64,000 bases of DNA, from positions 1-64,000 of the forward strand of contig JBBTQX010000003.1 of NCBI GenBank assembly GCA_038065455.1. The letters run 5' to 3'. Numbering within the stretch: position 1 is the first letter of the stretch; every line of letters starts with the position of its first letter. A model generated the notes under the pieces. That model ran no database searches and was not told the origin of the DNA. It saw only the letters and a list, made by a program, of their open reading frames with translations. Below, in pieces: positions 409-64,000 of the stretch. Both the position numbers and the translations under genes were made by a program. The stretch comes from Patescibacteria group bacterium (GTDB lineage Bacteria; Patescibacteriota; Minisyncoccia; UBA6257; GWB1-50-10).

Positions 409-675
409 TTACTTGTAGATGTCACTTCTGTGACTCGTGTCAACAAGGACTATGTTTTCTTTGCTTTTAAAATAAAAAACCACGCGCCAGTCGCGAGTGA
501 TTCTTAGAGAATAAAGTCCCGCTAGTTTCCCGGCAAGCGGTTTTGTGTGAAGATTCGGTGCAAACGGATTTTCCACTATTCCTTCCAATAACGCTGCCAA
601 CTTTTTCTTTATCGGCAAGGGGAGTTTTTTCGCCGACTTTATGAAAGCACGGGAATATATTATCCGCATATTCAT
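409..675 (-). CDS. RelE/ParE-superfamily toxin (mRNA interferase-like)
   Basis: 88 aa basic protein with YSRAFIKSAKKL, LHTKPLAGKLAGLYSLRITRDWRVVF and a C-terminal HRSDIY, the RelE/YafQ-like pattern. Confidence 0.85.
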   Translation of the reverse strand: MNMRIIYSRAFIKSAKKLPLPIKKKLAALLEGIVENPFAPNLHTKPLAGKLAGLYSLRITRDWRVVFYFKSKENIVLVDTSHRSDIYK

Positions 676-1310: not shown

Positions 1311-1513
1311 CGTGATAGTGTGAAGGCTGATTTCTTTTCTCCGATAATAAGCTCAATCACTTCCTTGATGTTATGCAAGGCCTCATCGATAGTTTTGCCT
1401 TGAGTATAACAACCGTCAAAAAGCGGACACTCAACCACGTAAAAACCGTCCCTTCCTTTTTCCATAATAAGAGGGATTTGTTTATTGAAATGGGTGAATT
1501 TCATCTGCGACAT
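1304..1513 (-). CDS. hicB: HicB-family antitoxin
   Basis: DGFYVVECPLFDGCYTQGKTIDEALHNIKEVIEL motif. The C-terminus may have been altered by the deletion that truncated hicA. Confidence 0.85.
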   Translation of the reverse strand: MSQMKFTHFNKQIPLIMEKGRDGFYVVECPLFDGCYTQGKTIDEALHNIKEVIELIIGEKKSAFTLSRC

Positions 1514-4173: not shown

Positions 4174-5643
4174 TTAAAGCCTTTTCACTTTATATTCCAC
4201 GAGCAGGCTGCCCAAATACGGCGTGAATTCAGGGTTGTTGCCCGGCTTGACTCTCATCCGCCACTCCAACGCCGCGCCGTGCGGGTCGGAAAACCAATGG
4301 CTTGTGCCGAGCGAGACCGCCTCCCATTTTCCATTATCGGTATTTCGAGTTTCGAAAGAAATATCCGCATTTCCGGCCGAGAAATCTTTTGATGTGAGGC
4401 CGATAAGATATGGCACTTCGGTATTGGCATAATTGTTCAAATTTATCGAAGTAACGGAAACCGGCCCGGAAGGAATTTTGAAGCCGTTATCCGTTACATT
4501 CCAATTTTGCGGACTCCCCGCTTTTTCGACATAAACCGAAAGCAAAAAAGGAAACGAATCTACACCAATCTTACGAAGTCCGACTTCGTAAGATTTAATG
4601 ACGACGAGATAAGAAAATGAAACCGGCGCGGTGCCCAATATATCCGCCTCGCCCGCTATATCCGCCGTGCCGTTCTGGAAAAGTTTAATGAAAACGGCGC
4701 GATTGTTTTTTTCTTTATTAAAAAGATACCAAGCCGTATGAATGCCGCTTCCCGCCCGTATAATACCCGGCCGGATGCCACCCTTCATTACTCTCACGTC
4801 AAAGAGATCGGAGATATCTTGAACACTATTTCCCCTCACTCTATATCCCTTGCCTTGATACGCGCCGTAGACCGCGAGAAAATCATCCGCTGTTCCGCCA
4901 AAACCCCACTGGCCTTCGTATTGCGAATCGAATGCTTTTCCGTTTTGAAATATCGGCGTGAAATTTTTTCCGTCAAACCTGTACGCGTAACCGGCATATT
5001 TATTGCCTTCCTTGATAACAACGCCTATCGCCCAGCCGTTGCCTACCGCATCCGCTGTCACATTATCGATATTCTCCAATACCGGAAGCTTTATCGGAGA
5101 ACCGTTCAATGTCAGAACCGTCCCTTTCGCGGAAAGACAGGAGCCACTGATACAGGCGGAGGAAAAATCCGGAGCCGTGGCGCCTTCGCTTTTTTCGCTC
5201 CATTCTAGCGACGGCGGAAACATCATAGCCGTCGCGACATCGTCGCGATACATCGTGGTTTCGGATTGGCTCAAGCCGCCCACGCCGGAAAACAAGTCGG
5301 TATAACCCGCATAAATCAAGCCATCGTCCGGCTGAGGCGTGCTACTGACGGAAACGGGACTTTCCATTGCGGCCGACTGCCCCGGCGGCAAACCGGCGGC
5401 CGGTGCCGGCGATTCTAATTTCTTCGTCAAACTCAGACTGAACGTCACATTCGAATCGATTCGGTTTTCAATCAGCTGGCGCAAAAAATAAAAAAACCAA
5501 AGGATTAGAATGAAAAAACCCAGAACGAAGATGGCAGTCGTGAAGGCAAGCCCGATGCCGGCAAAGAAATTTTTCAGCTTTCTGATTAATCTCTCGCCCT
5601 CCTTCAATTCTTTAATACCCCAATCCTTTATTTGATGTTTCAT
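4174..5643 (-). CDS. Membrane-anchored extracellular hypothetical protein
   Basis: 489 aa with an N-terminal TM segment, a P/S/A-rich linker and a beta-rich remainder. Confidence 0.75.
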   Translation of the reverse strand: MKHQIKDWGIKELKEGERLIRKLKNFFAGIGLAFTTAIFVLGFFILILWFFYFLRQLIENRIDSNVTFSLSLTKKLESPAPAAGLPPGQSAAMESPVSVSSTPQPDDGLIYAGYTDLFSGVGGLSQSETTMYRDDVATAMMFPPSLEWSEKSEGATAPDFSSACISGSCLSAKGTVLTLNGSPIKLPVLENIDNVTADAVGNGWAIGVVIKEGNKYAGYAYRFDGKNFTPIFQNGKAFDSQYEGQWGFGGTADDFLAVYGAYQGKGYRVRGNSVQDISDLFDVRVMKGGIRPGIIRAGSGIHTAWYLFNKEKNNRAVFIKLFQNGTADIAGEADILGTAPVSFSYLVVIKSYEVGLRKIGVDSFPFLLSVYVEKAGSPQNWNVTDNGFKIPSGPVSVTSINLNNYANTEVPYLIGLTSKDFSAGNADISFETRNTDNGKWEAVSLGTSHWFSDPHGAALEWRMRVKPGNNPEFTPYLGSLLVEYKVKRL

Positions 5644-6811: not shown

Positions 6812-7037
6812 GCTTTCTTTTATTATAAAAGTCTTCCTCTTCTACTTCCGCAAGTCTTAGAATGCCGAACAATGTTCCTTTGGCAAGTTCTTTATGTAAA
6901 GGAACAATGGTGGTAATGGTCCGGTTGGCTAGCTTTCTCTGTAACTTAATGTGACTGCCTTTTTGGGAGGTAAGAGAAAAGCCGAATCCCCGACATAAAA
7001 TTTTTACAACCTCCTTCCCAGAAAATGTTTTAGGCAT
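6798..7037 (-). CDS. hicA: HicA-family toxin
   Basis: SGKEVVKIL...GF...QKGSHIKL...IVPLHKELAKGTLFGILR, with the catalytic GSH present. Confidence 0.92.
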   Translation of the reverse strand: MPKTFSGKEVVKILCRGFGFSLTSQKGSHIKLQRKLANRTITTIVPLHKELAKGTLFGILRLAEVEEEDFYNKRKHEKL

Positions 7038-7254
7038 TTACTTCAATTAAAGCAAATATCGGCGGAATCTTGCTTAAAATTTTCTTATTTTGGGGAGTAT
7101 TTTCAAGATATAACCCAACTGCCTCCTCAAGATTTTTGCGGGCTTCTTCTACGGTTCGGCCCTGGCTCACCACGCCCAATTCCGCAGAACGGGCGACGAA
7201 CCACTTCCCTTCTTTATTGATAATGGCGGTTGATTTATAAGTCATAATTCGCAT
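7030..7254 (-). CDS. hicB: HicB-family antitoxin
   Basis: KEGKWFVARSAELGVVSQGRTVEEARKNLEEAVGLYLE; overlaps the hicA start. Confidence 0.9.
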   Translation of the reverse strand: MRIMTYKSTAIINKEGKWFVARSAELGVVSQGRTVEEARKNLEEAVGLYLENTPQNKKILSKIPPIFALIEVNA

Positions 7255-7266
7255 TATACCTTTTCT

Positions 7267-10200
7267 TTATTTGATGTTCAACGGAATGCCTTTTTCGTTT
7301 GTTTCGACCTGATTCAGCCATTCGCTCGCGTCATGGCGAGGCGCAACGAGATGATAGGAAATTTCGAGATTTCGAGATTTCGAGATTTCGAGATTAGACG
7401 GTTCTCCAAATATCACAATTTGTTTTTGAGCGGGATTTATTTCATACCACGCGCGGCCGTTGAACTGCGGAGTGAGCAAGACCTCGATATCTTTCATATT
7501 CTTGCCTTCGGCGATTGTTTGCCAGAAAAGCCATAAGTCGCTGCCCTTTTCTACATCATTAAAATCAATAATATATTCGTATTTGGAATTTATTTGGGAT
7601 TTGGTGCTTGGTGCTTGTAATTTGGCTTTGCCATACACCTCCTCTTTTTGTCCGATTGTATTTGAAACATAGGTCGCATATTTCACTCCGCCGATCTGAT
7701 AAACCGGGTCGATGGTCGTCACATAAAGCTTGTTCACGCCCGAAATATCCTTGCCGTTCATATTGAGATTGCCGGACATTGAATCGCCGGTTTTTAGAAC
7801 ATATCCGCTTGTTGAGCTTGAGGTTGTAATTCCAGCATTCGTGATGGCATCGCTCACATACTGCACCGAGGCCGCGTCAGTCGAGATAGCCGGATAGCCG
7901 AGACCTATAATCTTCTGGCTACCGACATCAATGGCGGGCTGCGCGCCCGGAGTGATTACCAATTTAGCAGTGGTGGGCGTTGTCGTCCCGATGCCGACGT
8001 TGCCTCCTTGTTTAACAGTAAACCTGTTTGTAGTGCCAGCTTCATTAATTTCAAAAGCAACACCAACTAACTGATTTACTCCATACGACCAATCTACTAC
8101 ATCATCACTTCCTACAACTTCATTTACTGCAATTCCGTCTACACTATCAGTCCTCTTAAACCTCAATTTTTGACCTTGACTAGCACCTGCAATTTCCAAT
8201 TTTACATTCGGACTCACTGTCCCGATGCCGACGTTGCCGGTTCCCGCTATGGTTAATGCTTCGGTCATAGTTCCTCCTGGTCTTACACGGAAAGAAATTG
8301 GCTGATCGTTGTTCCAGTTCTCTACTTGTAACTTTGTGGAGGTTGCCACTAAATCCATAGATCCACTCGTTCCGAAATAAACATATCCCCCGTTCGCTCT
8401 AATATCACCGCTAACATCCAGCTTATAACTCGGCCCCGTCGTCCCGATGCCGACTCTATCATTCGTGGCATCAATATACATCACATTGGCGGTGGTGTTA
8501 TAGTGCTGGAATTCAAAGTTGCCCTTCGTGGAGTTGGAACCGAAGACGCCGGCCGAGACATAGGAGGCGTTGATCGTTTGAGAACCGCCGGCAAAGGCGG
8601 TGGTTTGGACGGTATTGTCGGGGAATCTGAAGCCGCCGGTTACGGAGTAGATGACGCCGTTTACGGTCAGAGGATAGCCGGGGGTGGTGGTGGCGATGCC
8701 GACGGAGCCGTTTGACAGCATTGTCACATATGCATTGCCGTTATTTGTAAACAACTGCAGATATCCGCTTGCGGATGAATTACCAATAATCGAGTTGGCA
8801 CCGCTTTGCTGTAACAATAAATTTGCGCTGTCTGTCACTAAATTCATATCTGCTGTTGCTGAATTGTATATGGACAGTTTTTGTGATGGAGTTGTTGTCG
8901 CGATACCGACGTTGCCGCTGATAAAGGTGTTGTGTGCCACAATGTCATTGCCGATGAAATTATGAGTGCCTTCAATTTCTATATCATAAACCTGTTCTTC
9001 GCCGACTTTTTCAATGGAGGAAACCTTAGCCCACACCATATCGGAGTTATCCCCAACAGGATTTGACAAGAACGCACCCGGGGAATACAGTGGGGTGAGT
9101 AACGGTACCCCGGTTCTAAAAGCCGGGGCGTTTTTTTGTTCGCCCAGCCCGATCATCGACTGAATCTTGTCAAAATATACATGCTGTCGCTGGCGCAGTT
9201 CCCATGCCATATTTTCCTCAAAACCCATAAAGAGAATTTTCTTTCGTCCTTGAAGCACGGGGGCTATGGCAGCGATATAATCGCTGTCCCCGCTTACCAC
9301 TATTACCGCATCCAACTCGGCAAGGCGCCCCATGATGTCAACCACAATCTCCGCATCCATGCTCCCCTTCTTCTTGTATGCGAGGTTTTCCTCGTCGCGG
9401 ATATACTTCAGCGATTTTGATTTTATCTCCATGAAATCACCGTATGCGCGTCGGAGTTCACGCACAAACGCCTGCGTGCGCAAGAACGCGCTGTCGCGCT
9501 TGCCCGGAATCGTAAGGTAGTAGTTCACGAATCTGACATCAAAGAGGGTCTCCCAAAACATCTTCAATTTTGCGTAATCCACGCGCCAGCCGGCATTGCG
9601 CTGGGCATAAAACATATTGGCGTCATCAATAAACACGCCGAGTTTTGGTTTGGGGACCGCGATGAAGTCGCCTTTCCGAATATCGGCTACGGTTAGCCAG
9701 CCCGCCCCTGGAATCGGGGAGGGATGACGCGGCGATCTTCCTTGAGTATTTTGCGCCAGATACGGATGCTCTGCTGTGGTGCGGATTTCTCTTCCGTCTT
9801 CGGTCTTGAGGCGATAGGTGGTTTTAACGCCCATATCCAACAAGGCGTTCACTTTGCTCCAAACAATGCGGCCGGTGGCTTCATCGAGTGAGGCAATCTC
9901 ATCTCCGGCTTGAATGTCTTTAATCGCGACCTCGTTTTCCTCTTCTATCCATTCGTCGTTCTTGCCTTTGCGTCGGCGTTTGCGGCGGAGCTTGGTATCT
10001 CCGGTCACGCACTGCCCGACAACGTGGAGAGGCGCGGCAGGAGTGGTCGTCCCGATGCCGACGTAGCCGGTACTTAACATCGTCAATTGTTCCGTTAACA
10101 CACCGCTGCCATTTCTGGCTCCAACTACAAATGCTGAATCTCCATTAGTCGCATTCACAAGTCGCGAGCCAAGCATAACGCTTGTATCATTGTCAGGCCC

Positions 10201-12027
10201 TGAAAATTTCAATAACGTGAGATTCCCGGCAGTATTATTAGTATTTGAAAGTTTTGCCACCGCCGTTGAGTTAATACTCATAGCGGCGGTTTCAGCGATA
10301 TTTTGTGAAACTTGTAATTTATTGTATGGTGCTGTTATTCCGATGCCGACGTTGCCGCTTGCTCCTAAAATCGTGAACCTATTTACCGCGTTAGCAGTAC
10401 TGTTATTTTGGCTAATGTAAAAGTCCGCGGTTTCACTGCCGGCCGCATTCTGATATGAGCGTAAATAGACTCCTCCGCGATCTCCATAAATGCCAAGATT
10501 CAACGCCGCACCATTTCCAAGACCTGCGCCGCCAGCCGCAACTCCGATAATCCGCGCAGAACCAAGATCAGAAGGTGCACGGAGAAGTGAGCTATTAAAT
10601 CCTCCAACATCAAGTTGGTATGCCGGCCCCGTCGTCCCGATGCCGACTCTATCATTCGTGGCATCAATATACATCACGTTGGCGGTGGTGTTGGAGTGCT
10701 GGAATTCGTAGTTGCCCTTGGATGAGTTGGAGCCGAAGACGCCGGCCGAGACATAGGAAGCATTAATTGTTTGAGAACCCCCAGCGAAAGCAGTGGTTTG
10801 GGTAGTGCCATCGGGGAAGCGGTAGCCGCCGGTTACGGAGTAGATGACGCCGTTTACGGTCAGAGGATAGCCGGGGGTGGTGGTGGCGATGCCGACGTTG
10901 CCGGCTTTATCTATCAACATTCTTGTTGTATTCGATACACCGGAACTATGAGTTACAAATCCAATTTGATCACTTTGACCATCAGTATCCACTTTAAAAT
11001 ATATGTTCGATGTCCCGCTTCCATCTGCAAACGAGCCACCAGCGCCATATAATCCAATATAGTGATACGCATTAGCGCCGCCAAGACTATTCAATCCCAA
11101 AGCAATATTTCCATTTACGTCTAATTTCGACAGAGGCCCCGCCGTCCCGATGCCGACGTTGCCGGTTCCCGCTATGGTTAATGCTTCGGTCATAGTTCCT
11201 CCTGGTCTTACACGGAAAGAAATTGGCTGATCGTTGTTCCAGTTCTCTACTTGTAACTTTGTGGAGGTTGCCACTAAATCCATAGATCCACTCGTTCCGA
11301 AATAAACATATCCCCCGTTCGCTCTAATATCACCGCTAACATCCAGCTTATAACTCGGCCCCGTCGTCCCGATGCCGACCGAACCGCTGAAATATCCGCC
11401 ACCGGCGACGGTGAGTGATTGGGGCAGATTGGATGTGGTCGAAGTGCCGACGGCCAAGCTCAAAGGAAAGGCGTAGTTCGCGCTCTGAAAAGTCCCGCCG
11501 CCGATATTCGAGGCGATAATGCCGCTAATATTCGTGGCGTTGCCGTAATATGAGCCGGTTGTCTTTATGTTTCCACCAACAGTAAGGCGGGCGGTAACTC
11601 CCGCGCCAGTAGAAGTGGCCTTATCGCCAATCGCCACATCGCCATATTGGTTGATATCCATCACTACGTAACCAGGGAGAGTGGCTGACTCGCGATAAAG
11701 CTGGAGATTGCCGAAGTTGCGCGCCGACCAGACATAGGTATTGCCCGAGGTGAGATTTCTTAAACTAAGCCCTGGATTCGTAGTTGAAGCGACCGTGAAA
11801 ACGTAACCAAACGTGCTTGGCCCGCTCTCAGTCGAGGTAGTGTTGAAAGTACTGACCGGCGCAGGACTAGCCGTACCGAAACCGATGTTCAAACTCGCAT
11901 CAACCTTGAAAAGGCCGCCACCCGAGCCGGGCGTCTGGCCCACCGAAGGACCGATGAAGGCTTGCGCTGAAGGCAAAATTAAAAAACTAATAACAAAAAT
12001 CGAAACAGATAAAAAGTTTTTTTTCAT
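7267..12027 (-). CDS. Large secreted GNVGIGTT-repeat fibre/adhesin-like protein containing an intein
   Basis: Signal peptide ending AQA, about 11 G(N/S/Y)VGI(G/A)TT junctions separating variable modules, and Hint-domain motifs at aa 673-1033. Confidence 0.9.
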   Translation of the reverse strand: MKKNFLSVSIFVISFLILPSAQAFIGPSVGQTPGSGGGLFKVDASLNIGFGTASPAPVSTFNTTSTESGPSTFGYVFTVASTTNPGLSLRNLTSGNTYVWSARNFGNLQLYRESATLPGYVVMDINQYGDVAIGDKATSTGAGVTARLTVGGNIKTTGSYYGNATNISGIIASNIGGGTFQSANYAFPLSLAVGTSTTSNLPQSLTVAGGGYFSGSVGIGTTGPSYKLDVSGDIRANGGYVYFGTSGSMDLVATSTKLQVENWNNDQPISFRVRPGGTMTEALTIAGTGNVGIGTAGPLSKLDVNGNIALGLNSLGGANAYHYIGLYGAGGSFADGSGTSNIYFKVDTDGQSDQIGFVTHSSGVSNTTRMLIDKAGNVGIATTTPGYPLTVNGVIYSVTGGYRFPDGTTQTTAFAGGSQTINASYVSAGVFGSNSSKGNYEFQHSNTTANVMYIDATNDRVGIGTTGPAYQLDVGGFNSSLLRAPSDLGSARIIGVAAGGAGLGNGAALNLGIYGDRGGVYLRSYQNAAGSETADFYISQNNSTANAVNRFTILGASGNVGIGITAPYNKLQVSQNIAETAAMSINSTAVAKLSNTNNTAGNLTLLKFSGPDNDTSVMLGSRLVNATNGDSAFVVGARNGSGVLTEQLTMLSTGYVGIGTTTPAAPLHVVGQCVTGDTKLRRKRRRKGKNDEWIEEENEVAIKDIQAGDEIASLDEATGRIVWSKVNALLDMGVKTTYRLKTEDGREIRTTAEHPYLAQNTQGRSPRHPSPIPGAGWLTVADIRKGDFIAVPKPKLGVFIDDANMFYAQRNAGWRVDYAKLKMFWETLFDVRFVNYYLTIPGKRDSAFLRTQAFVRELRRAYGDFMEIKSKSLKYIRDEENLAYKKKGSMDAEIVVDIMGRLAELDAVIVVSGDSDYIAAIAPVLQGRKKILFMGFEENMAWELRQRQHVYFDKIQSMIGLGEQKNAPAFRTGVPLLTPLYSPGAFLSNPVGDNSDMVWAKVSSIEKVGEEQVYDIEIEGTHNFIGNDIVAHNTFISGNVGIATTTPSQKLSIYNSATADMNLVTDSANLLLQQSGANSIIGNSSASGYLQLFTNNGNAYVTMLSNGSVGIATTTPGYPLTVNGVIYSVTGGFRFPDNTVQTTAFAGGSQTINASYVSAGVFGSNSTKGNFEFQHYNTTANVMYIDATNDRVGIGTTGPSYKLDVSGDIRANGGYVYFGTSGSMDLVATSTKLQVENWNNDQPISFRVRPGGTMTEALTIAGTGNVGIGTVSPNVKLEIAGASQGQKLRFKRTDSVDGIAVNEVVGSDDVVDWSYGVNQLVGVAFEINEAGTTNRFTVKQGGNVGIGTTTPTTAKLVITPGAQPAIDVGSQKIIGLGYPAISTDAASVQYVSDAITNAGITTSSSTSGYVLKTGDSMSGNLNMNGKDISGVNKLYVTTIDPVYQIGGVKYATYVSNTIGQKEEVYGKAKLQAPSTKSQINSKYEYIIDFNDVEKGSDLWLFWQTIAEGKNMKDIEVLLTPQFNGRAWYEINPAQKQIVIFGEPSNLEISKSRNLEISYHLVAPRHDASEWLNQVETNEKGIPLNIK
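7361..7392. repeat. Tandem octamer (ATTTCGAG)x4 inside coding sequence
   Basis: Four perfect copies, read on the minus strand as NLEISKSRNLEI. Confidence 0.9.
7581..7625. repeat. Heptamer-periodic repeat inside coding sequence
   Basis: ATTTGGAATTTATTTGGGATTTGGTGCTTGGTGCTTGTAATTTGG encodes KLQAPSTKSQINSK. Same style as the four-helix-bundle flanks. Confidence 0.7.
8219..8454. repeat. Module A, copy 2 (236 bp direct repeat of 11144-11379)
   Basis: Identical by visual comparison; bounded at both ends by GTCCCGATGCCGAC. Confidence 0.92.
8431..8704. repeat. Module B, copy 2 (274 bp imperfect repeat of 10624-10897)
   Basis: Ends identical, middle diverged mostly at synonymous sites. Confidence 0.9.
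8929..10011 (-). mobile_element. Intein (361 aa) with an inserted NYN-domain nuclease
   Basis: Block A Q/CVTGDT, block B IRTTAEHPYL, block F VYDIEIEGTHNF, block G IVAHN/T. The insert at about 9150-9642 has the NYN motifs FIDDAN, KKGSMD and SGDSDY. Confidence 0.92.
9047..9137 (+). ncRNA. Putative antisense small-RNA unit inside the intein
   Basis: TTATCCCCA (9047-9055), TTGACA (9063-9068), 17-bp spacer, TACAGT (9086-9091), then hairpin CCCCGGTT-CTAAA-AGCCGGGG and T7 (9131-9137). Confidence 0.6.
10624..10897. repeat. Module B, copy 1
   Basis: Pairs with 8431-8704; part of it also resembles the ORF at 1-331. Confidence 0.9.
11144..11379. repeat. Module A, copy 1
   Basis: Identical to 8219-8454. 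Confidence 0.92.
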
Positions 12028-12561
12028 TTACGGCAGAATGATTAATTTTCCGCTGATTATTTTTCCATTGGGACAAGAATCCCGGCAAGAAAAATCATAC
12101 GTGCCGGAATCCGAAGGCGTAAAAGTTATCTTGCCTATTTTTCCACTAGAGGCCGAAACATAAAAACCAGCCGACCGGGAAAAAATATCGAAGTTTCCGC
12201 CCGAAGCCATGAGATTTATCTCCACTACGTCGCCTTTGTTGGCGACGATTTCGGAAGGATTGTAACCCGAAACCGAAACGTTCACGTTAAAGACTTTGTA
12301 ATTCGAAACGTTACTGCCGGAAGATTTGCTCGTTATCGGGATATCCTGTGAGGGCTTAGTCAGCTCCGCATTTTTGGGAACCTCATTCGTGAAGCCGGTT
12401 TTTTCCCCGCTTTTCGGAGTCGAGGTCGCGGTAATTTCGCCGGCCTGGCCGCCCGGGGAAACCGGCCCGCCGCCATTTTTTTTCGTTAAAACCCCCACGG
12501 CTACTCCCACCAAAACCACCACTCCGAAGACAGCAATAATAGTGGCTTGTTTTCTAGTCAT
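12028..12561 (-). CDS. Membrane-anchored cupredoxin-fold protein
   Basis: TM helix, linker, YNPSEIVANKGDVVEINL...SGTYDFSCRDSCP..GKLII. Its stop abuts the ATG of the fibre gene. Confidence 0.8.
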   Translation of the reverse strand: MTRKQATIIAVFGVVVLVGVAVGVLTKKNGGGPVSPGGQAGEITATSTPKSGEKTGFTNEVPKNAELTKPSQDIPITSKSSGSNVSNYKVFNVNVSVSGYNPSEIVANKGDVVEINLMASGGNFDIFSRSAGFYVSASSGKIGKITFTPSDSGTYDFSCRDSCPNGKIISGKLIILP

Positions 12562-14376: not shown

Positions 14377-14964
14377 TTAAAAATTGGTTTTTTCAAACTC
14401 GAAAATCTCAGAATCCCTAATAAGGAAGGTTTTGTTAGTTGAGGCGGTTAAGCCTTTATTAGGGTCTAAGCTAAAACCTAGATATATGCAATATACACCC
14501 CTATTCTTTACCTCTTTTATGGCAGGTTGTAAGTCCGAATCAGAACTAGCCAAAATAATATTGTTTACTTTTTTGTCACACGACCAAGTAACCATATCCA
14601 CGGCAATTTTTACATCAACACCCTTCTCTTTAAAAATCTTTATCTTTTTCCCAAGAAAACCGTCCCCAAGCTGGCCTCTTACTCTGCCGGCAAACTCAAC
14701 TTCAAATTCCTGCCTTTCAAGATGGGTTTTTAGCAAGCGCTGCTCCTGAATTAACTCTTGGGATTTTTTAAGCGTAGCCGGATCTTCTTTTATTCTTCCA
14801 AAATAGAAGATTTTCCTATCGATATTTACACCATATAAAACTTTTCCAAAAATACCCTTAAAATCGTATTCGTGCCAAATCGGCTCTTTTCTTCCATAAG
14901 ATAAAAAAACGGATTTCATTTTACGTTTAAAATTCTCTCCGTCTATCAATAAAACCGATTCCAT
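14377..14964 (-). CDS. NYN-domain (LabA/DUF88, PIN-like) protein
   Basis: LIDGEN, KEKGVDVKIAVDM and LASSDSDL motifs. Confidence 0.92.
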   Translation of the reverse strand: MESVLLIDGENFKRKMKSVFLSYGRKEPIWHEYDFKGIFGKVLYGVNIDRKIFYFGRIKEDPATLKKSQELIQEQRLLKTHLERQEFEVEFAGRVRGQLGDGFLGKKIKIFKEKGVDVKIAVDMVTWSCDKKVNNIILASSDSDLQPAIKEVKNRGVYCIYLGFSLDPNKGLTASTNKTFLIRDSEIFEFEKTNF

Positions 14965-14989
14965 ATATAAATAGTAGGCTTAATTGATT

Positions 14990-15085
14990 AAAAATCGAAA
15001 CCCCAGCGGACCTTGCGGCTGGCTGGGGTGGTTATGTTCTACATAATACAACAGACACCCACTTAAAGCAAATGGGTGTGGATAA
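14990..15085 (-). promoter_or_regulatory. DnaA-box-like motif, sigma70 promoter and hairpin leader upstream of the NYN gene
   Basis: TTATCCACA (15085-15077), TTGCTT-17bp-TATTAT (15071-15043), then hairpin ACCCCAGC...CC-GCAA-GG...GCTGGGGT followed by TTCGATTTTT. Confidence 0.65.
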
Positions 15086-42269: not shown

Positions 42270-42923
42270 CTATTTTCTACCGACTATAATGACATTCTGA
42301 GTAAAAATTCCGGCCGAGCTGCCCGTTTCAATCAAGCGATAGAGTTTCAATCCAATTTCAATTATCCGCCAGAGGCAATGACGGATGAAGGATTTCATCC
42401 CGTGGACCACCGGCCGAACCGGATAAGCCCCCGGCTCGCGGAAACCGATTCCCGAAAGAGCGGTCTTAATGCTCTGTTCCGTAATATCCACTCTCTCCCC
42501 GAAGTGCGCGTTCCTCAGCCGACCCACCGGACTTTCGGCATTGACGCCGCGAATAACCACGATACCGTCCTTCTTCAGCGATTTGAAAATTTCTTCCAAA
42601 AGATTGAGAGTTTCTTCTTTCGTCAAATAATCCAAAACATCTACCAAAAAAACTCGGTCATAGTAATCGTTCTTATTTTTGAGAAAACTCAGAGCATCTC
42701 CGTGATGGATATTTTTAACACCCAAGCCGGTACCTTCGTCTATTTTTTCCCGATTAATATCGATGCCTTCCGTATTTGAATAACCCTTATTTTGAAGCCA
42801 ATTAACCATTCCTCCGCGGCCGCAACCCGCGTCTAATATTATTGCCGACTTATCTTTCGGCAGAAATCGGCCGTACCAACCGTGCCAAACCGGAAATTGA
42901 TTTTTAATATCCTTTAGATTCAT
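42270..42923 (-). CDS. Class I SAM-dependent methyltransferase
   Basis: ILDAGCGRG, GID and LKKDG. Confidence 0.85.
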   Translation of the reverse strand: MNLKDIKNQFPVWHGWYGRFLPKDKSAIILDAGCGRGGMVNWLQNKGYSNTEGIDINREKIDEGTGLGVKNIHHGDALSFLKNKNDYYDRVFLVDVLDYLTKEETLNLLEEIFKSLKKDGIVVIRGVNAESPVGRLRNAHFGERVDITEQSIKTALSGIGFREPGAYPVRPVVHGMKSFIRHCLWRIIEIGLKLYRLIETGSSAGIFTQNVIIVGRK

Positions 42924-63854: not shown

Positions 63855-64000
63855 GCTTGGATTCTAATTCAATCAGGTGATTCCAAGCTATTGGGATATT
63901 ACGTCAAATTTGACATAAATACTACAGTATGTTAAACTATTAAAAGTTAATTCACATTGTTAAAAACAAATAAACTGCGTAGAAACGCAAGGAGGTTCCC

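Follow-up and report, generated by a model that had tools for sequence, protein, structure and literature searches.

What is a nuclease of the NYN family doing inside an intein, at the place usually held by a homing endonuclease, and why does the peptide that follows it look like regulatory DNA read from the wrong strand? Both questions are raised by a 64,000-nucleotide (nt) stretch from a Patescibacteria group bacterium (positions 1 to 64,000 of contig JBBTQX010000003.1, assembly GCA_038065455.1; hereafter the window), in which the strand opposite the tail of the NYN domain carries a predicted promoter, hairpin and T-run. Our comparisons show a conserved candidate promoter-to-terminator unit, with a strand-specific covarying hairpin, that is co-inherited with NYN genes, and we consider it very probable that the segment 9063-9137(+) is a genuine NYN-linked RNA gene. 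The explanation toward which we lean as a whole, with modest conviction, is that of a conserved and self-contained RNA gene of about 40 nt whose product would be the cognate antidote or regulator of the NYN nuclease.

The unit in the window lies inside coding DNA, antisense to the intein (Table 1), and every element listed in the preliminary description of this locus (promoter, spacer, hairpin, T7 and an open frame on the other strand) was found at its position. The promoter, TTGACA-17-TACAGT, matches the consensus at 10/12 positions and has the hexamers and spacing of the sigma-70 type, and GGGGTG fills the gap between its -10 hexamer and the 5' segment of the predicted RNA. The GC-rich hairpin (arms CCCCGG at 9108-9113 and CCGGGG at 9123-9128; 8 pairs, of which 6 are G-C, around a loop of 5), followed by a U-run, has the form of an intrinsic (Rho-independent) terminator, and the predicted 40-nt RNA folds at -15.5 kcal/mol (z = -2.0). 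Between positions 5000 and 14000 the unit accounts for one of five 10/12 promoter matches and for the best terminator-like site; the same region holds 21 promoter-like sites, against 12.1 +/- 3.1 after shuffling, and 10 terminator-like sites, against 10.6.

We regard conservation at the 3' ends of other NYN genes as the decisive test of whether this predicted unit is real. NYN 3' ends were taken from 173 loci in other genomes and metagenomes, of which 140 were kept (hmmsearch E <= 1e-10, not cut by a contig end, de-duplicated) and searched with a crude detector requiring a promoter of at least 9/12, then 12-41 nt, a hairpin of 5-9 pairs and a T-run. An antisense unit was found at the 3' end of 106 of the 140 genes, with many tiny bacteria of groundwater among the carriers. 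It follows the stop codon in 73, straddles it in 14 and is read through in frame in 19, the last group comprising 14 long intein-type open reading frames (ORFs; at least 514 aa) and five ORFs of 131-247 aa. Many free-standing NYN ORFs (170-230 aa) stop short of the tail, with the unit directly past the stop on the opposite strand. As controls, the same detector returned 80 units, a density of 0.020 per 330 nt, over the genome to which the window belongs (1,308,840 strand-bases; 11 of these 80, the window's included, have a promoter of at least 10/12), and only 4 units in 116 sense-strand regions lying ahead of free-standing NYN genes. Of the 34 genes in which the detector saw no unit, three (L109, L132 and L143) were later recovered by a covariance model, and many of the others bear labels such as Chloroflexota, Planctomycetota, cyanobacterium or acidobacterium. 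Among the loci with a unit, eight records (L012, L014, L035, L038, L059, L070, L077 and L078) are labeled as metagenome-assembled genomes of Gammaproteobacteria or Pseudomonadales, with NYN proteins and units of the Patescibacteria type, and these contigs may have a different origin from that stated on the label.

The promoters of the homologous units score 9-12 of 12, with mean scores that are alike whether the unit lies after the stop (10.7), straddles it (10.8) or is read in frame (10.5). The -35 and -10 hexamers are conserved and the spacer sequence is free: TTGAC occurs in 97 of the 106 units and TTGA in all 26 of an aligned set, and the spacer measures 16 nt in 48 units, 17 nt in 50 and 18 nt in 8. 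The preliminary description had also placed a DnaA-box-like sequence at the head of the unit. The box is indeed present in the window. A match of at least 8/9 to TTATCCACA within 40 nt upstream of the -35 occurs in 14 of 106 units, where the background of these loci would predict about 1.8, and its position and orientation vary. At L094 there is a perfect box with the same spacing to the -35 as in the window. Judged from these loci, the DnaA-like box is an optional accessory outside the conserved core. The genome as a whole has 15 perfect TTATCCACA boxes, one of which (contig C2 of G000, position 42513, minus strand) abuts the -35 of the unit at an NYN paralogue; another, at window position 15076 (minus strand), lies about 100 nt upstream of a second NYN gene of the window (14380-14979, minus strand), at which no convergent unit was seen by eye.

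Table 1. Coordinates in the window of the predicted RNA unit and of the protein features that surround it.
Feature	Position	Strand	Description
DnaA-box-like 9-mer TTATCCCCA	9047..9055	+	8/9 to TTATCCACA; 7 nt upstream of -35
-35 hexamer TTGACA	9063..9068	+	perfect
-10 hexamer TACAGT	9086..9091	+	17 nt past -35
Predicted 40-nt RNA	9098..9137	+	predicted start at A9098, 7 nt past -10; end within T7
Single-stranded 5' segment AGTAACGGTA (= AGUAACGGUA)	9098..9107	+	10 nt; conserved; predicted
GC hairpin CCCCGGTT-CTAAA-AGCCGGGG (arms CCCCGGUU / AGCCGGGG)	9108..9128	+	terminator stem
T7 run	9131..9137	+	preceded by CG; sense-strand codons CAA AAA AAC
Linker 'tail' peptide QKNAPAFRTGVPLLTPLYSPGAFLSNPVGDN	9046..9138	-	residues 964-994; in-frame translation of the antisense RNA gene
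NYN (PF01936) nuclease domain	9181..9645	-	residues 795-949; Pfam E 1e-13, 52.5 bits against a cut-off of 24.2
Intein	8929..10011	-	residues 673-1033, 361 aa; CVTGDT ... VAHN, then Thr+1; Pfam Intein_splicing 2.7e-22
Host ORF	7267..12027	-	1586 aa; GNVGIGTTxP repeats; interrupted by one intein; surface or tail-fiber-like protein

The tail peptide, which joins the NYN domain to the C-terminal Hint strands in a frame that stays open throughout, could in principle be conserved for its own sake. NYN inteins and free-standing NYN proteins share a tail motif, (G/N)KK-(T/A)P-x4-G-x-LL-xx-LY-x5-S, and taken alone such a motif would suggest an ordinary protein motif, against the reading of the tail as translated DNA. 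When the antisense strand of the tail was read in 19 non-redundant loci, all 19 had a promoter, 5' segment, hairpin and T-run, in the form of TTGAC(A) or a near match, 16-17 nt, a TAnnnT or TAnnnA hexamer and AGTAAC(A/G)GT or a variant of it, with a perfect 12/12 promoter in two loci. The hairpin arms vary between loci yet stay complementary (CTCCTGGG/CCCAGGAG, CCCCAG/CTGGGG, CCCCCGAA/TTCGGGGG). Each conserved residue maps to a DNA element: KK to the T-run, P and G to the hairpin arms, LL to the 5' segment, LY to the -10 and S to the -35. In one locus (L098) the -35 is in another codon phase (AGT CAA vs G TCA A, with a spacer of 16 nt), as expected from a constraint on DNA and not from one on protein. 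The codon of tail residue Ser988 is TCA in 15 of 15 sequences, whereas six codons are in use for the catalytic Ser912, which is itself invariant. When all conserved tail columns are pooled, codon uniformity (0.68) exceeds that of the domain (0.62) only slightly, which locates the signal at particular positions.

The structural model of the intein agrees with this picture. AlphaFold2 gives a mean predicted local distance difference test (pLDDT) score of 88.9, and the sole stretch of low confidence is the tail, where intein residues 293-302 and 310-314 fall below 50 on either side of a short helix; the model fits a flexible linker whose sequence would be dictated by the opposite strand. The proposal that the peptide is translated regulatory DNA is thus upheld by the residue map, the uniform serine codon, the shifted phase at L098 and the low-confidence tail.

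Covariation places a folded structure on one strand in particular. RNAalifold, run on a MAFFT-only alignment of 26 units, found a 7-pair hairpin with compensatory changes in six of the seven pairs. A first covariance model (R1) served to align 56 distinct units. Of the cells in this alignment 94.2% pair, and both sides are changed in 91, as against 20.6 +/- 5.2 in shuffled alignments (0 of 500 shuffles reached this number) and 17 when the pairing partner was slid by one column. A distant and large subfamily (43 units, aligned by MAFFT only) has 11 pairs, of which 8 show compensatory changes, and 42 of the 43 units retain a particular U.G wobble. Within the hairpin there are 17 G.U pairs and 2 A.C pairs, an excess which indicates that the folded strand is the one antisense to NYN. 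Since R1 contains the window, a second model (R2) was built from 24 non-coding units, with neither the window sequence nor any in-frame unit among them. Its best match, both in the 64-kb window and in the 654-kb genome, is 9098-9139(+) (23.3 bits; E 0.004 and 0.04, respectively), and this local match begins exactly at 9098, the predicted start of the RNA. The second-best match to R2 in the window, 63907-63962(+) (20 bits, E 0.021, GC 0.2), is probably a generic AT-rich promoter-terminator pair.

A search of 41 related genomes with R1 gave mostly weak matches (24-32 bits); among the loci kept from these genomes only two, L182 and L184, adjoin an NYN gene, both with the unit convergent and abutting, and no strong copy was found among the four same-genus genomes searched. 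Rfam 15 gave no match at E <= 1 in window positions 7000-12500, and in 16 homologous loci it returned tRNAs and two weak unrelated matches, with nothing relevant. In our literature searches neither an NYN intein nor a small RNA linked to NYN was described, and no paper combined the terms 'NYN domain' and 'intein'.

The 5' segment divides the units into at least six types. That of the window reads AGTAAC(A/G)GT, with related AG(C/T)AAC or GTAAC motifs in neighboring subfamilies; the others are AGCAACGCT, TGTAACTCC, CGTAATCTT, TGTGATAGCAC and ACTAAACGTGA, the last being the largest (47 loci) and adjoining NYN proteins that are 21-29% identical to the window's. Non-coding units of one subfamily conserve their 5' segment. 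Mapped onto a quick maximum-likelihood tree built from 93 NYN domains, the types require 7 changes (minimum 5), as against 43.9 when shuffled. Because relatives share labels, this tracking of the NYN tree shows co-inheritance of the predicted segments, not co-evolution. Taken together, the occurrence at 106 of 140 3' ends, the segment types that follow the tree and the covarying hairpin support, at the level of comparison, the earlier suggestion that the NYN travels with a cognate small RNA, and the alignment of 3' ends that had been proposed as a check showed the -35/-10 spacing kept at 16-18 nt as well as the covariation.

The comparison also bears on how the unit came to be translated. The idea that the whole module was captured in frame finds support in the nearest free-standing NYN genes, which have a non-coding unit after the stop (73 loci), as against the 19 loci in which it is read through. 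In free-standing Patescibacteria NYN genes the unit is non-coding DNA, convergent with the gene and abutting its stop codon, and we suggest that in the lineage which entered inteins the NYN frame came to read through it, the translation becoming a flexible NYN-to-Hint linker. In-frame capture of an RNA gene by an intein is unusual. Units also occur at other NYN genes of the same genome, which has eight NYN matches in 654 kb, just one of them (the window's) inside an intein. Three paralogues (C8:92572-93081, C8:7045-7863 and C2:42599-43312 of G000) have, by eye, their own convergent promoter-hairpin-T-run units, which overlap the stop codon and have longer predicted RNAs of about 55-85 nt.

Two loci present the unit in a second arrangement. 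L104 has tandem NYN genes, the first with a sense-orientation unit (558-643, plus strand) upstream of its ORF (659-1198) and the second with a convergent unit; at L125 a single NYN is flanked by a leader unit (1377-1466, plus strand) and a convergent one, with similar 5' segments. A further locus, L013, is an intein whose Hint parts are 71% identical to the window's and in which an unrelated insert with no Pfam match replaces the NYN. Here a decayed unit remains (38.8 bits), with its hairpin pairs broken. Just beyond it lies a second near-consensus promoter (L013:518-551, minus strand), antisense into the insert, which may be another translated antisense RNA region.

How, then, would the RNA act? 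That it serves as antidote or regulator of the NYN, rather than as guide or as pure antisense RNA, is a reading to which we give somewhat less than an even chance. Under it, the strong promoter would produce RNA in excess and the nuclease would be held in check, mainly because the NYN protein recognizes the conserved 5' segment and the hairpin, with a logic like that of type III toxin-antitoxin systems; perfect complementarity to the mRNA could add a second layer, of the kind seen in type I systems or in oop RNA. A protein-recognized RNA is favored because non-coding units conserve the 5' segment, because the wobble pair is conserved and because the unit is also found in sense orientation. In the intein, the nuclease-RNA pair might serve as an addiction module that penalizes loss of the intein, a conjecture prompted by the many NYN paralogues in a tiny genome and by the decayed unit in the NYN-less intein.

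Several observations weigh against this account. A fixed position at the stop codon is not needed for protein binding and suits antisense action better, and NYN toxicity, RNA binding and RNA stability are all putative. The RNA-library data are assembled contigs only: a 282-nt contig of metatranscriptome run X1 covers 9083-9364 with no differences, and such contigs carry neither strand, ends nor level and may stem from DNA carry-over. The window promoter, at 10/12, is without the TG extension present in many non-coding units, and the leader-type evidence comes from two loci only. Both R1 and the alignment that goes with it (A4) contain the window and were fitted to the structure, which tilts their figures toward it; related sequences are non-independent, and the shuffle tests overstate significance. 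Finally, the match to R2 is modest (23.3 bits) and local, and omits the promoter half.

Of the alternatives, the one that survives best is a pure cis-antisense regulator, an RNA that would pair with the NYN or host mRNA and trigger its cleavage or block it, with the protein never recognizing the RNA. It would explain why the T-run abuts or overlaps the stop in 87 of the 106 units (those after the stop and those straddling it), in convergent orientation; an RNA read from the opposite strand is necessarily a perfect complement of the message, and the 5' segment of the window occurs only once in its genome (both strands searched), with no trans target. We nevertheless think it rather unlikely that this is the whole story, as self-complementarity requires no conservation of sequence, yet the 5' segment is conserved in non-coding DNA, the conserved U.G wobble suggests a recognized shape, and leader units stand in sense orientation at the NYN genes of L104 and L125.

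Less probable again is a guide RNA, in which the hairpin would be a handle for the NYN and the 10-nt 5' segment would aim the nuclease, either at an intein-free allele (for homing) or at an invader. The architecture is suggestive, given that a short single-stranded segment with a hairpin resembles minimal guide RNAs, that the NYN sits at the homing endonuclease position and that the 5' segments are specific to NYN subfamilies. The searches for a target speak against it: the segment has no complementary site elsewhere in the genome, no consistent match to the spliced extein junction was seen by eye in the 6 loci with both junctions, the count of the largest subfamily's segment (ACTAAACRTG) in 41 genomes was about equal to that of its reversed control, and pairing of the segment with the 5' region of its own NYN gene was not enriched (longest run 5.94, against 6.14 when shuffled; 86 loci). 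Moreover, the segment is also conserved in free-standing genes of very different genomes, for which a common target is not evident.

We find it very unlikely that the locus makes no functional small RNA and is instead an element of the sense strand or of transcription, acting through stabilization or ending of the message, polymerase collision or -1 frameshifting. The sense strand does have a heptamer, A AAA AAC, in the zero frame (9129-9137, minus strand), 1-2 nt ahead of the hairpin; in the -1 frame a TAG would follow after six codons, and a slip would yield a product lacking the C-terminal Hint part. Known frameshift sites have a longer spacer than 1-2 nt. A strong convergent promoter might also interfere with transcription of the NYN. 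However, the G.U and A.C counts and the U.G wobble put the structure on the antisense strand, no T-run follows the hairpin on the sense strand, and the conserved -35 and -10 with a free spacer, as well as the conserved 5' segment, would be left unexplained. Chance, or a by-product of selection on the C-terminal tail as protein, is scarcely credible: the tail motif does show conservation at the protein level (all of 9 sequences have P179, L187, L191 and Y192) and its codon choice is barely more uniform than that of the domain, but the 73 units that are non-coding past the stop already contradict it, as do arms that covary while the encoded residues change, the shifted phase at L098, the uniform TCA and the predicted disorder of the tail.

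Setting the unit beside known systems helps to define what it would be. In type III toxin-antitoxin systems (ToxIN, CptIN, TenpIN), the toxin gene is preceded by that of an antitoxin RNA, which is made of tandem repeats and which the toxin processes. As in these, the RNA here is tied to an adjoining ribonuclease-type protein and its production in excess is predicted, and the leader order at L104 and L125 (promoter, small RNA, terminator, nuclease gene) is the toxI-terminator-toxN layout. It differs in being single-copy, without tandem repetition or signs of processing by the nuclease, in the NYN (PIN-like) fold in place of ToxN/AbiQ, and in an RNA gene that is mostly convergent, not upstream.

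Type I pairs with a convergent 3' overlap include par RNA I/RNA II of pAD1 and txpA/RatA, and type I toxins are usually small hydrophobic peptides. The phage lambda oop RNA, of 77 nt, is antisense to the 3' end of cII. As in type I systems, the predicted small RNA here has a candidate promoter of its own, converges with the gene of its partner and, by geometry, is fully complementary to the coding strand, so that it might overlap the message. A type I toxin need not be a small peptide: RalR is reported to be a DNase toxin with a small RNA antitoxin, RalA (PMC4041452), which shows that an enzyme can be the toxin of such a pair. The RNA here is far shorter (about 40 nt), with little beyond the 10-nt segment and the terminator; the partner is a nuclease domain of about 150-155 aa, not a small peptide; and different genomes keep the 5' segment, a conservation that antisense pairing by itself would not require. 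With oop it shares a very short promoter-to-terminator transcript convergent with the 3' end of a gene, and differs in that oop is not known to be linked to a nuclease family, to have its opposite strand translated into protein sequence or to belong to a family with a shared covarying hairpin and conserved 5' segment. In its logic the unit resembles RNA-antitoxin systems, yet it matches the definition of neither type I nor type III. Homing endonuclease inteins (LAGLIDADG, HNH) likewise hold a nuclease domain between the N- and C-terminal Hint parts; here the insert is an NYN, whose antisense strand carries the RNA gene. A CRISPR-associated NYN is reported to cleave single-stranded RNA with no sequence preference and to depend on Mn (10.1101/2024.04.08.588522).

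Sequence blocks (Cys1 in CVTGDT..., a TTAEHP block and a ...VAHN|T end, as in the Hint fold), Pfam and a confident fold model identify 8929-10011 as an intein, whose splicing activity is predicted. Homologues of the host ORF carry the source label 'tail fiber domain-containing', and inteins with NYN occur in many Patescibacteria proteins and are frequent in tail-fiber-like ones; several occur per tail-fiber-like homologue, the ORFs of L010, L011 and L013 ending in a second CVTGDT... start, and the insertion point of the NYN-plus-tail cassette in the Hint fold varies among homologues. The acidic residues of the NYN are intact: D12, N15, D102 and G124-D125-S126-D127, which we take to be the active site, are invariant in alignment A2, and the D, N, D and GDSD columns are invariant or nearly so among the aligned homologues. 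Free-standing relatives are about 200 aa long, with 35-45% identity. PADLOC and NCBIfam scans, covering four of six proteins, gave only generic NYN matches below or near threshold, and no defense system was assigned.

If the RNA is made, it would represent an uncatalogued and widespread small-RNA family of candidate-phyla-radiation (CPR) bacteria, with at least six types, each tied to an NYN clade, and it would provide a first functional handle on a very common, uncharacterized nuclease family of bacteria that cannot be grown alone. At the locus described here, a single DNA stretch would contain a complete RNA gene and, on its opposite strand, encode a protein linker. A bolder and more doubtful generalization is that CPR NYN nucleases are two-part RNA-protein modules, each gated or aimed by a clade-specific RNA of about 40 nt, and that inteins captured the whole module in place of a homing endonuclease, with the RNA gene as a translated part of the frame. 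If that were true, inteins would have a new engine of persistence or mobility, through RNA-antidote addiction or RNA-directed cleavage, and it leads to the testable idea that a toxin-antidote pair, not a homing endonuclease, may be what lets such inteins persist.

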